From the IMG/VR virus record IMGVR_UViG_3300045988_098456: 64,000 bases of DNA, one strand, 5' to 3'. Below are positions 26,108 to 27,857 of this stretch, in pieces. Made by a program: the position numbers and the translations under genes. The DNA is from a virus. The notes under the pieces are model-generated. The model worked only from the letters and a program-made list of their open reading frames with translations. It ran no database searches and was not told where the DNA came from. How positions within the stretch are numbered: the stretch's first letter is position 1; each line of letters begins with the position of its first letter.

Positions 26108-26139
26108 CTTGCATGTTTCAAAACTTATTTGTATCTTTG
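26108..26139 (+). promoter_or_regulatory. promoter CTTG-N20-TATCTTTG
   Basis: 20-nt spacer. Confidence 0.75.
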
Positions 26140-26195
26140 CATCGTCAATCAAGATAAGTTGGTTGATTTGCCGAGTGACAAGTTTCACTCAATAA

Positions 26196-26210
26196 GGTGA
26201 GAGCGACACC
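26196..26210 (+). promoter_or_regulatory. leader hairpin box, degenerate variant (GGTGAGAGCGACACC)
   Basis: Same GGTG/CACC stem with a 7-nt loop; lacks the AAAAACTGT tail. Confidence 0.4.
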
Positions 26211-26246
26211 AAGGGGTAAGACCCAAAACAACTAGCACAATTGATT

Positions 26247-27176
26247 ATGTCTAAGCAGACTGGTTTTTCATTCGCAAGTTCAAAGAAGTCATTAATTGAG
26301 ACTATTGACGAAATCAAGAAGTCAAAGATGCCTCGCAACGAAAAGATTGTTGCATTGAAGGCTTGCGGTCTTCGTGAGAAAGAAATCTCCGATATGTTGA
26401 AGGTCTATGTACCAAGCGGTTCAACTTCAACGAGATTCGTTTATACATTCGGTGTTGAGATTGAATGTGTTCATGCCGAGCGCAATGCCTTGATAGAGGC
26501 AGGTCGTCAGAATGGTGTTGATATTCATTCTGAGGGTTATAACCATACCGATAACAAGAGCTATTTCAAGATTGTTAGTGATGCTTCAGTTGGTGGTGAT
26601 GTTGACCCTAACGAGGTTGTAAGTCCGGTATTGAATGGCAATACAAATGGTATGGCAACTTTGAAGAAGGCTATCAAGTCTTTGGATGCTGTAGGTGCAA
26701 GAGTTAATTCTACTTGTGGTCTTCACGTTCATATCGGTGCATCTAAGTTGACAGGTGAGCAGTATGTTAACGTTTTCAAGAATTATCAGAAGCTTGAAAG
26801 ATTGATTGATAGTTTCATGGCTCCTTCAAGAAGAGGTAATTGCCGTTGGGCAGCCAGCTTGCTTGACAAGGATTTCTCTAATTGCCACGGCAATTACGAT
26901 ATTAGACGTAATGTATTTCATGGAGATAGATATTACAAGGTCAATGCAGAGAGTTATGCACGTCACAAGACTATCGAATTTCGCCAGCATCAAGGTTCAA
27001 CAAATTATAAGAAGATTGAAATGTGGGTTAAGTTCTGCGCAAAGCTTGTCGGTTGGTCTCGCAACAATGTCTTCACTAGTGAGGTTATGAATATCGAAGA
27101 TATACCTTTCTTGAATAAAGAAGAGAAGGCTTTCTTCCAGAGCCGTAAGGATGCATTTGCAGCCAATAATGATTAA
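26247..27176 (+). CDS. amidoligase (glutamine-synthetase-fold COOH-NH2 ligase, Amidoligase_2-like)
   Basis: FGVEIECV, SDASVGG...EVVSPVL, CGLHVHIG and IEFRQHQGS blocks; first ATG is at 26247. Confidence 0.7.
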   Translation: MSKQTGFSFASSKKSLIETIDEIKKSKMPRNEKIVALKACGLREKEISDMLKVYVPSGSTSTRFVYTFGVEIECVHAERNALIEAGRQNGVDIHSEGYNHTDNKSYFKIVSDASVGGDVDPNEVVSPVLNGNTNGMATLKKAIKSLDAVGARVNSTCGLHVHIGASKLTGEQYVNVFKNYQKLERLIDSFMAPSRRGNCRWAASLLDKDFSNCHGNYDIRRNVFHGDRYYKVNAESYARHKTIEFRQHQGSTNYKKIEMWVKFCAKLVGWSRNNVFTSEVMNIEDIPFLNKEEKAFFQSRKDAFAANND

Positions 27177-27184
27177 TTAATGTA

Positions 27185-27208
27185 GTCCTAGGGTAAAAGC
27201 CCTAGGAC
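27185..27208 (+). other. perfect 9-bp intercistronic hairpin
   Basis: GTCCTAGGG-N6-CCCTAGGAC, followed by an A-run rather than a T-run. Confidence 0.6.
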
Positions 27209-27252
27209 ACAAAAAAACAAAGTATTACAAAGAAAAAAGAAAGGGTAAAGAT

Positions 27253-27786
27253 ATGTGTGTTATTATTGTATGTCCGAAAGGTGTTGCTTTACCATCCGTA
27301 GATGAGCTGAGGGCAGCGTATATGAGAAATCCAGATGGTTGTGGGTTCGTGAGCGAGTCTGACCATTACAAGAGTTTGCATTTCTCTACATTTATCCGTA
27401 GATTAATGAAGCGAGATATAAATGAGAATGTAATCATACATTTCAGATTTGCTACTCATGGTTCTGTCTGTGTCAAGAATTGCCATCCATTCTACAAGGC
27501 AGGTTATTGGTTCGCACATAATGGAGTGCTCCCGATTTGCTCCGAGCATGATAAAACAGATAGTCAAATTTGTTTTGAACGTTTCATTTATCCTACTATC
27601 AAGAAATATGGTTGGGGTTCTGATGAACATATGAAAGAAATGAACAAATGGACAGCTCATGGTTCTAAGTTTGCAATGTTGCATAATGGTGAGATTGTGA
27701 AGTCCGGTAAATTCATAGAGCGTGATGGACGGTTCTATTCTAATTTGAATCATTTGGGTTATATGAGAAATGTAATAAACTTTTAG
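27253..27786 (+). CDS. class-II (Ntn) glutamine amidotransferase-like protein
   Basis: N-terminal Met-Cys (MCVIIV), NPDGCGF, HFRFATHG and NCHPF blocks. Confidence 0.7.
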   Translation: MCVIIVCPKGVALPSVDELRAAYMRNPDGCGFVSESDHYKSLHFSTFIRRLMKRDINENVIIHFRFATHGSVCVKNCHPFYKAGYWFAHNGVLPICSEHDKTDSQICFERFIYPTIKKYGWGSDEHMKEMNKWTAHGSKFAMLHNGEIVKSGKFIERDGRFYSNLNHLGYMRNVINF

Positions 27787-27819
27787 AGGATTAATGTTTA
27801 GGTTCTTTTTATTCGACAA

Positions 27820-27857
27820 GCGTCAGATGTCCGTGAGGATATTTGGCGTTTTTTTTT
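27820..27857 (+). terminator. rho-independent terminator
   Basis: Long imperfect hairpin GCGTCAGATGTCC-GTGA-GGATATTTGGCGT followed by T9. Confidence 0.75.

Follow-up and report, generated by a model that had tools for sequence, protein, structure and literature searches.

What do two small proteins of amide chemistry do for a phage of the human gut? The question is raised by a stretch of viral DNA of 64,000 nucleotides (nt), IMG/VR record IMGVR_UViG_3300045988_098456 (hereafter the window, meaning the whole stretch that was analysed), in which two adjacent genes encode an amidoligase with a predicted glutamine synthetase (GS) fold and a class-II glutamine amidotransferase (GAT-II) of the N-terminal nucleophile (Ntn) type. 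An earlier note on this DNA had proposed both assignments and described the genes as a cassette with its own promoter and flanking terminators. What our analysis adds is the quantification of obligate pairing of the two genes in Bacteroidales phages, the asymmetry of that pairing, a conserved hairpin between the genes, a promoter of the Bacteroidetes type and the finding that no other gene travels with the pair. Judged by its sequence, the cassette is a minimal two-gene form of a known type of phage gene pair. We tentatively read the pair as a two-subunit glutamine-dependent amidotransferase, in which the Ntn glutaminase would supply ammonia and the GS-fold ligase would activate a carboxylate.

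The two proteins of the cassette

The amidoligase gene begins at an ATG that is the start common to its homologues. Its product of 309 amino acids (aa) matches the Pfam family Amidoligase_2 (PF12224) over model positions 3-245 of 245 (E 3.5e-33, 115.9 bits against a cutoff of 22) and the phrog_2443 family "amidoligase enzyme" (1.4e-53); no NCBIfam match was obtained, and no solved structure was matched by sequence search with the protein or with PF12224. The AlphaFold2 (AF2) model (predicted local distance difference test, pLDDT, 84.4) was compared with known structures by Foldseek, which placed YbdK on top (1r8g, 5.7e-5, and 1tt4), followed by glutamine synthetases, PafA and glutamate-cysteine ligase (GCL), with gamma-glutamylmethylamide synthetase also among the matches. 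The identity to the YbdK and GS structures is 10-14% with a template modelling (TM) score of about 0.35-0.4, and a fold of the GS/YbdK type is moderately supported. Structure matches in BFVD to annotated phage amidoligases reached down to E 5.8e-18. Moreover, E71, E73, H160, H162, E244, R246 and H248 do not vary among 20 homologues with identities as low as 48%, and from the order of the motifs they are candidate counterparts of the metal and ATP ligands of GS.

The protein also carries an N-terminal three-helix domain of about 55 aa, the profile of which had no match in PDB or Pfam. Its identification as an EF-Ts_N/UBA-like or helix-turn-helix (HTH) domain was rejected, the weak Pfam hint (E 0.0048) having appeared in only one of 17 homologues. 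The amidoligase fold is found in crAss-like and giant viruses as well. Among distant relatives without an amidotransferase partner, an Amidoligase_2 domain is fused to N-terminal pentapeptide repeats in a metagenome-assembled genome of Legionella (L230, 7524-9122), and a non-Bacteroidales contig assigned to Omnitrophota (L241) holds three amidoligase paralogues.

The downstream gene encodes a protein that scores above the cutoff with the Pfam model GATase_4 (28.7 bits, cutoff 23) and below it with GATase_6 (22.6 bits, cutoff 27), and its profile matches in PDB are the stand-alone 1te5 and the glutaminase domain of GlmS. The AF2 model is of high confidence (pLDDT 95.2, predicted TM score, pTM, 0.90) and shows the four-layer alpha-beta-beta-alpha Ntn fold; Foldseek matched it to the GlmS glutaminase domain 1xff (E 2.2e-7, TM 0.66), PurF and EgtC with its gamma-glutamyl substrate. 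The motifs HFRxATHG, NCHPF, HNG and TDS align to GlmS and 1te5. M1, C2, R65, T68, N90, G91 and D103 show no variation across 22 homologues, the most divergent of them at 47% identity, and R65, T68, N90-G91 and D103 were equated with Arg73, Thr76, Asn98-Gly99 and Asp123 of GlmS, the last of these by motif. The residues with which GlmS-type enzymes hold free glutamine are thus all present and invariant, which supports our reading of the pair as a glutamine-dependent amidotransferase. The Ntn Cys nucleophile of class-II amidotransferases requires removal of the initiator Met in the cytoplasm. Inspection of the sequences revealed no signal peptide or hydrophobic N-terminus in either cassette protein, and both look cytoplasmic. 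For both genes, profile searches, AF2 models with Foldseek and the conserved catalytic residues agree with the families that the earlier note had named.

One possibility is that the pair is a set of auxiliary metabolic genes that boosts nitrogen assimilation or glutamine/glutamate metabolism of the host during infection. Such an interpretation was given to the genes for amidoligase, amidotransferase, "glutathione synthase" and gamma-glutamylcyclotransferase of a Planctomycetes phage (eLife 2024, PMC10945688), although without biochemical evidence for the enzymes. The amidoligase described here is remote from glutamine synthetase at the identity and TM score given above and has no close cellular housekeeping counterpart, as the missing NCBIfam match also illustrates; furthermore, to couple a glutaminase with a glutamine synthetase would serve no purpose. 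We regard this as the least probable of the explanations considered.

Pairing and placement in related phages

The first two profile scans of IMG/VR returned almost only near-identical copies of the phage, and co-occurrence was counted from scans of genomes and metagenomes. The scan with the amidoligase profile, with one genome per species, gave 80 loci, mostly Bacteroidales prophages and phage contigs, and in 62 of these the amidotransferase gene lies directly downstream on the same strand, at a median gap of 63 nt (76 nt in the window, where both genes are likewise on the plus strand). The remaining 18 loci comprise 14 distant or truncated matches and four close homologues; in these four, the place of the downstream amidotransferase gene is taken by an integrase-like gene or a HigBA-like pair. 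For the reverse scan, 80 metagenome loci were seeded with a divergent alignment of the amidotransferase; 78 were testable, and an amidoligase gene is directly upstream in every one of them. The earlier note had named unrelated families or a lack of co-conservation as what would overturn its view; the families were confirmed, and the pair recurs in 62 of 80 and 78 of 78 loci.

The shared strand, the fixed order and the short median gap fit subunits of one enzyme. Because the amidotransferase never occurs without the ligase (78/78) and the ligase sometimes stands alone, we suggest that the former is an accessory glutaminase subunit and that the synthetase may also be able to use free ammonia. 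Amidoligases without an amidotransferase were found at loci L182, L193 and L195 and in Porphyromonas phages. A hidden amidotransferase upstream of the lone amidoligase of a Porphyromonas phage was considered and rejected, as the two upstream open reading frames (ORFs) lack the Met-Cys start and the motifs. In the prophages L193 and L195 (9251-9937), the lone amidoligase gene is located beside HTH genes of the immunity region and is followed by an apparent toxin-antitoxin pair of the HigB/HigA type, so the slot next to the amidoligase appears to hold varied accessory cargo.

We then looked for further partners among the genes around the pair. BLAST of the window neighbours against the 80 genome loci showed that only the cassette pair is common to different Bacteroidales phage backbones, and no third gene conserved with the pair was found within 8 kb. 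Likewise, neither the spacer nor the flanks of the two genes hold a conserved gene for a small peptide. The small ORFs that separate them in some loci are unrelated to each other, and a co-encoded peptide substrate or tag was therefore rejected. PADLOC gave no match for either cassette protein or for three upstream neighbours, and a known anti-phage defence system was rejected. In addition, a tblastn search of the window with the components of Pseudomonas phage O4 and phage C75C1 matched only the two cassette genes. Since there is no third gene, no peptide gene and none of the extra components of the Pseudomonas phages, the two proteins and substrates supplied by the host would have to suffice for the reaction.

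The position of the pair was described in the earlier note as moron-like. This holds in so far as the cassette has its own promoter and terminators and is located between the transfer RNA (tRNA) genes and the head genes, but a recent insertion it is not in this lineage. In relatives of the window, the pair stays beside the head genes while all have diverged to about 40-65% identity, and because it diverged in step with the capsid protein, we consider it an old syntenic resident. The pair is carried by different phage backbones, but within this lineage its synteny with the head genes is stable down to about 50% identity, and no close relative without the pair was found.

This synteny raises the possibility that the pair is a virion-assembly enzyme that modifies a scaffold, capsid or decoration protein during morphogenesis. 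The pair is directly 5' of the block of scaffold-like, 153-aa and major head protein genes in 18 related loci, and this order was held while the head protein fell to 48-65% and the pair to 39-50% identity; moreover, the amidoligase gene is inside the morphogenesis region of Porphyromonas phages. Across the 80 genome-seeded loci, however, the head module follows the pair in only 15-21, and the first large genes 3' of it vary between scaffold-like or head, ParB-like/methyltransferase, terminase, PAPS-reductase-like and portal genes. Several points argue against a role in assembly, which we hold to be improbable: elsewhere the pair precedes ParB-like/methyltransferase, PAPS-reductase-like or terminase genes or adjoins the immunity region; Pseudomonas, Arthrobacter and mycobacterial phages have it in early or end regions; the cassette has a promoter to itself and a terminator on either side; and across backbones only the pair itself is conserved. 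As a rule, the pair marks the beginning of the packaging/structural region, and it does so on at least two phage backbones.

Transcription signals and RNA elements

The promoter claimed for the cassette is present, in the Bacteroidetes sense. The site matches with zero mismatches a phage-wide motif, TTGCATnTTT..TTTnTATCTTTG, which is of the -33/-7 type with a TAnnTTTG box and of which the window holds eight copies against 0.03 expected from shuffled sequences. Six other copies align with the cassette promoter with at most three mismatches and have a leader or an ORF downstream. A sigma-70 promoter was ruled out: the sigma-70 scan is empty at the site, so that "consensus" applies to the Bacteroidetes-type motif and not to the sigma-70 one. 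The TAnnTTTG box was also found 5' of the amidoligase gene in 43 of 80 related loci.

Between promoter and start codon lies a structured leader (a 110-nt stretch folds at -29.4 kcal/mol, z -3.1 against shuffles). It contains GGTGAGAGCGACACC, which is, as the earlier note had recognised, a variant of a hairpin box, namely a longer-loop version of the box GGTGAGACACACC that trails four other promoter copies. At these four copies the exact box is followed by AAAAACTGT. The box could be a shared RNA element of leaders, for example an antitermination or processing signal. The structured leader is retained only in the closest relatives (L168-L172), where base changes keep the stems; more distant loci have short A-rich leaders instead. 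An Rfam search of leader and spacer matched only tRNAs and no riboswitch or other known RNA.

The perfect 9-bp hairpin reported between the two genes was found as described. It folds at -20.3 kcal/mol (z -5.4) and is followed by an A-rich tract and no T-run. We surveyed 140 related pairs, of which 73 have spacers of 35-140 nt, for strong stem-loops (free energy, dG, <= -13 kcal/mol and z <= -2.5). An equivalent hairpin was detected in 40 of the 73, and in 39 of these 40 it starts 0-12 nt past the amidoligase stop codon. The hairpin is conserved by position and shape and not by sequence, as the stems are wholly different (e.g. GTCCTAGGG, GCCTTGCGC, CCCTTGGGGAC, GTCAGGGGT and GGGTAGGGGG). The 9 nt that follow the recurring hairpins hold a median of one T. 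The flanking terminators of this phage have T-runs and the hairpin has none; it is thus probably no simple terminator. Most plausibly it would act on the RNA as a stabiliser, processing site or partial stop and thereby fix how much of each protein is made, and hairpins of this kind may serve these phages generally to set subunit ratios.

Terminator-like hairpins with T-runs flank the cassette, in agreement with the earlier note to within a few bases (z about -5 for each). The upstream one probably closes the unit of the tRNA genes and a 92-aa ORF and so would insulate the cassette from what lies 5' of it. Of 59 testable related loci, 26 have a terminator-like site behind the amidotransferase gene.

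Predicted reaction and its alternatives

Taken as an enzyme of two subunits, the pair would work as follows. The cassette would be an accessory transcription unit of the phage, read from its own promoter by the RNA polymerase of the Bacteroidales host, with the intercistronic hairpin adjusting, on the transcript, how much of one subunit is made relative to the other. The 177-aa Ntn protein would shed its initiator Met, bind L-glutamine and hydrolyse the amide through Cys2 to free ammonia, the glutamine being held by Arg65 and Thr68 at the alpha-carboxylate and by Asp103 at the alpha-amino group, with Asn90-Gly91 as the oxyanion hole. The amidoligase would bind ATP-Mg through E71-x-E73, H160/H162 and E244-x-R246 and phosphorylate a carboxylate of its substrate to an acyl-phosphate. 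Within a presumed complex of the two proteins, the ammonia would pass to the ligase and attack the acyl-phosphate to give a carboxamide. The target should be a cytoplasmic molecule common to many hosts. This is the account to which we give most credence, if tentatively.

Several points weigh against it. To our knowledge, every characterised GS-fold ligase activates the gamma-carboxylate of glutamate and takes free ammonia or an amine, and we know of no GS-fold enzyme that gets its ammonia from a glutaminase subunit. EgtC, among the structural matches of the Ntn protein, is a stand-alone class-II hydrolase of gamma-glutamyl amides. In phage C75C1, the amidotransferase domain is fused to a gamma-glutamyl(amine) cyclotransferase domain (GGACT, PF06094, 2.7e-21), and Clostridium prophages pair the amidoligase with a "gamma-glutamyl cyclotransferase" (PMC11318856). 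The C75C1 fusion and the Clostridium pairing point towards gamma-glutamyl-amine chemistry over simple ammonia supply. As to the C75C1 locus itself (L002, 6642-7538), the gene annotated as "gamma-glutamyl cyclotransferase" consists of an N-terminal class-II amidotransferase and the C-terminal GGACT part, and it lies about 850 nt downstream of the amidoligase gene, with four small ORFs between them.

The corresponding alternative is that the two proteins write and erase (or carry) a gamma-glutamyl group: the ligase would join the gamma-carboxylate of glutamate to an amine, and the EgtC-like Ntn protein would hydrolyse the amide. Candidate amines are polyamines, cell-wall amines and the lysine side chains of host or phage proteins, and hydrolysis would limit or reverse the mark or free the amine after a step catalysed by the host. 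The match of the Ntn protein to EgtC with its gamma-glutamyl substrate speaks for this scheme, and the conserved Arg65 and Asp103 suit any gamma-glutamyl-X with a free alpha-amino acid end. It is established that GS, GCL/YbdK, PafA and gamma-glutamylmethylamide synthetase all activate the glutamate gamma-carboxylate; in addition to the C75C1 fusion, genes annotated as gamma-glutamyl cyclotransferase occur near the amidoligase in Clostridium prophages and Pseudomonas phages. On the other hand, a ligase and a hydrolase of one and the same bond would form a futile, ATP-consuming cycle unless host enzymes intervene, no third gene is conserved, and an amidotransferase that is never alone suits a subunit at least as well as an eraser. 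We therefore consider the writing and erasing of a gamma-glutamyl group possible but doubtful.

A wider proposal concerns the biological role. The pair may be a self-sufficient phage effector of a new architecture, in which an Ntn glutaminase feeds a GS-fold synthetase, that edits one widely conserved host molecule and so serves superinfection exclusion or counter-defence in abundant gut Bacteroidales phages. Examples of such edits would be the amidation of a cytoplasmic peptidoglycan precursor, or the amidation or gamma-glutamylation of a host protein or of an immune signalling metabolite. The proposal is compatible with the obligate pairing, with the absence of a third gene that is conserved alongside and with a location among accessory genes where the late region begins; we nevertheless regard it as unlikely.

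Phage and genomic setting

The window spans almost the entire genome of its phage, which is tailed and very common in the human gut. Over the 4 kb tested it is 96.9% identical to an unannotated "Bacteriophage sp." record from human faeces. Profile scans of IMG/VR found near-identical copies of both cassette genes in hundreds of contigs of about 64-130 kb, the clusters whose representatives match the two proteins have 2440 and 1133 member sequences, and a contig that was binned with Segatella copri (L169) has a copy of 97% identity. The genes are of lambdoid character, with a CI-like repressor, Erf, RecE-like, NinB and NinG proteins, a replication initiator and a helicase on the minus strand at 51-62 kb. 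Structural genes include those for a major head protein and for a tape-measure-like protein of 2091 aa. The GC content of the window is about 37%. The cassette has a GC content of 0.371 and an AT skew of -0.014, against 0.40-0.44 and a positive skew in the neighbouring 2-kb windows. The features of the cassette and its surroundings are collected in Table 1.

Table 1. Positions of the cassette elements and of other features in the 64-kb window.
Feature	Position	Strand	Description
Amidoligase_2 protein, 309 aa	26247..27176	+	Predicted GS fold, YbdK-like carboxylate-amine ligase
Class-II (Ntn) glutamine amidotransferase, 177 aa	27253..27786	+	Met-Cys start (MCVIIV), Cys2 is the predicted nucleophile
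Upstream terminator-like hairpin and T-run	25982..26016	+	12-pair stem 25982-26009, then TTTTTTT; fold -17.6 kcal/mol, z -5.1
Cassette promoter, Bacteroidetes type	26109..26139	+	-33 TTG, -7 TATCTTTG
Structured 5' leader, about 105 nt	26141..26246	+	Several hairpins; variant box GGTGAGAGCGACACC at 26196-26210
Intercistronic stem-loop	27185..27208	+	Perfect 9-bp arms 27185-27193 and 27200-27208
Downstream terminator-like hairpin and T-run	27818..27860	+	Closes the cassette; 15-pair stem 27818-27851, then TTTTTTTTT; fold -20.4 kcal/mol, z -5.3
Promoter-motif sites	10940, 20347, 26109, 33559, 41485	+	
Promoter-motif sites	57624, 62581	-	
Exact boxes GGTGAGACACACC	20414-20426, 41553-41565	+	Some tens of nt 3' of promoter copies
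Exact boxes GGTGAGACACACC	57571-57583, 62447-62459	-	Some tens of nt 3' of promoter copies
tRNA cassette, five tRNA genes	25061-25496		Precedes the amidoligase cassette
Scaffold-like coiled-coil protein, 153-aa protein, major head protein	27952-30473		3' of the cassette
DNA-modification island	34359-40234		Four methyltransferase genes (34359-35465, 36694-37407, 37385-38107, 39542-40234) and a Mom-like gene
Mom-like DNA modification protein	38338-38967		phrog_1384, E 1.9e-32

These surroundings suggest a further explanation, in which the substrate of amidation or gamma-glutamylation would be a base of DNA or a nucleoside of tRNA and the pair would act together with the modification island or the tRNA cassette. 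The window does hold a Mom-like gene and four DNA methyltransferase genes, five tRNA genes precede the cassette, a gene for the RNA ligase RtcB is found upstream of the pair in the related contig L163, and ParB-like/methyltransferase genes are often located 3' of the pair in related loci. None of these neighbours, however, is conserved with the pair within 8 kb, the pair is present in many phages that lack them, and no nucleic-acid-binding domain was recognised in either protein, the three-helix domain having matched nothing. A role in nucleic-acid modification is thus very improbable. The RtcB gene of L163 (3148-4302) lies about 1.7 kb from the pair.

Some further observations were made in the window. 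ARAGORN called the tRNAs of the cassette as Glu(UUC), Gln(UUG), Tyr(GUA), Lys(UUU) and one with the four-base anticodon "tggt" (25347-25421), which could be a frameshift suppressor or a mis-call. The Glu/Gln/Lys/Tyr set is that of the usual targets of anticodon nucleases, and the tRNA cassette may replace cleaved host tRNAs. Two tRNA calls on the minus strand of the early region, Asp with the unusual anticodon ATC (58603-58676) and Arg(CCT) (59214-59288), both overlap long ORFs. The 2091-aa ORF (12464-18739), upstream of the head genes, has strong matches to tape-measure PHROGs in its N-terminal third, and the rest belongs to an unknown family; it is followed by a 308-aa protein (18887-19813), the C-terminal half of which partly matches thymidylate-synthase PHROGs.

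Comparison with known systems

Each protein resembles well-known enzymes and departs from them in size and sequence. The amidoligase has its best structural matches in YbdK/GCS2 and glutamine synthetase and conserves E-x-E, His and E-x-R motifs of the kind expected to bind metal and ATP, but is about 60-130 residues shorter than YbdK and GS, at 10-14% identity and a TM score of about 0.4. Similarly, the amidotransferase has the N-terminal Cys, the Ntn fold and the motifs R-x-x-T-H-G, N-x-H-P, H-N-G and T-D-S in common with GlmS/PurF, EgtC and the YafJ-like 1te5, but is about 50-60 residues shorter and 11-18% identical. Furthermore, it is a separate protein beside a GS-fold ligase and not fused to a synthase domain as in GlmS and PurF.

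Among two-protein systems, EgtA/EgtC of ergothioneine synthesis likewise consists of a GS-fold ligase and a GAT-II enzyme, the latter cleaving a gamma-glutamyl amide, and EgtC is itself among the structural matches. PafA/Dop of pupylation consists of two GS-fold homologues, a ligase and a deamidase/hydrolase, and PafA was matched by the amidoligase. However, EgtA/EgtC needs EgtB and EgtD, and PafA/Dop needs Pup and the proteasome, whereas the phage pair has no conserved tag gene or extra enzyme. MurT/GatD (PMC3267633), an adjacent and co-transcribed pair of a glutaminase and an ATP-dependent carboxylate-amidating ligase that amidates peptidoglycan, serves as a working analogy only, amidation of the cell wall being what is currently predicted for the phage pair; the folds differ, GatD being a class-I triad glutaminase and MurT a Mur-ligase homologue, and as no homology to the cassette was detected, the phage pair is not a member of that system.

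The closest relatives are phage systems of the same composition. Phage neighbourhoods of Amidoligase_2 and GAT-II genes were reportedly first described, by comparative genomics, by Iyer, Abhiman, Burroughs and Aravind in 2009 (Mol Biosyst 5:1636). The passages of later papers that refer to that work credit it with the prediction that the products modify cell-wall or envelope precursors and so block superinfection, or synthesise a peptide-like metabolite (PMC10580990; PMC11318856). That the pair had been noted in phages before was also stated in the earlier note, and the same pairing does recur in unrelated phages, among them the LUZ24-like phages UFV-P2/tf (PMC3890496) and the OM43 phages MEP401/402 (PMC10580990), of which MEP401 has no extra components. 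We also found the pair in a Christensenellales phage, and in the Marvin-like mycobacteriophages Marvin and Tesla the 453-aa neighbour of the amidotransferase has the amidoligase fold. According to the earlier note, neither a substrate nor a function in the phage has been demonstrated; in agreement with this, the literature that we searched contained no substrate, phenotype or experimental function for the pair and no biochemical study of PF12224, and the nearest observation to a function is that evolved Pseudomonas phages gained missense changes in both genes (PMC11450229). Papers on ATP-grasp fimbrial modification and on CDC123 were set aside, as they concern other folds.

Amidoligase_2/GAT-II pairs are thus scattered across phages of Proteobacteria, Actinobacteria, Firmicutes and Bacteroidota, and more than 15 years after they were first noticed their substrate is still to be found. 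Our results confirm and sharpen this known open question rather than opening a new one, and the existence of the pair will not surprise a specialist. In its simplicity, with just two small proteins and no further conserved partner in an abundant gut phage, the cassette is a good entry point to the chemistry. If the glutaminase truly feeds a GS-fold ligase, the two parts would form an amidotransferase of a combination not yet characterised, and if the target is a molecule of the cell envelope or of immunity, the pair would be a new type of phage effector.

With the systems described in 2009, annotated as such in LUZ24-like, Paundecimvirus, phiEco32, OM43 and Marvin-like phages, the cassette shares the same two Pfam families, adjacent and co-directional, in tailed phages. 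It is nevertheless a minimal form. Pseudomonas phage O4 encodes an amidotransferase, a COOH-NH2 ligase, an amidoligase and a RimK-like ATP-grasp protein, whereas the cassette does without the COOH-NH2 ligase, the RimK-like ATP-grasp protein and the gamma-glutamyl cyclotransferase of such systems, and its amidotransferase is a bare domain of 177 aa compared with about 300-490 aa in those phages. In turn, its ligase has the extra N-terminal three-helix domain, and the cassette differs from these systems by its own Bacteroidetes promoter, the intercistronic hairpin and the flanking terminators.

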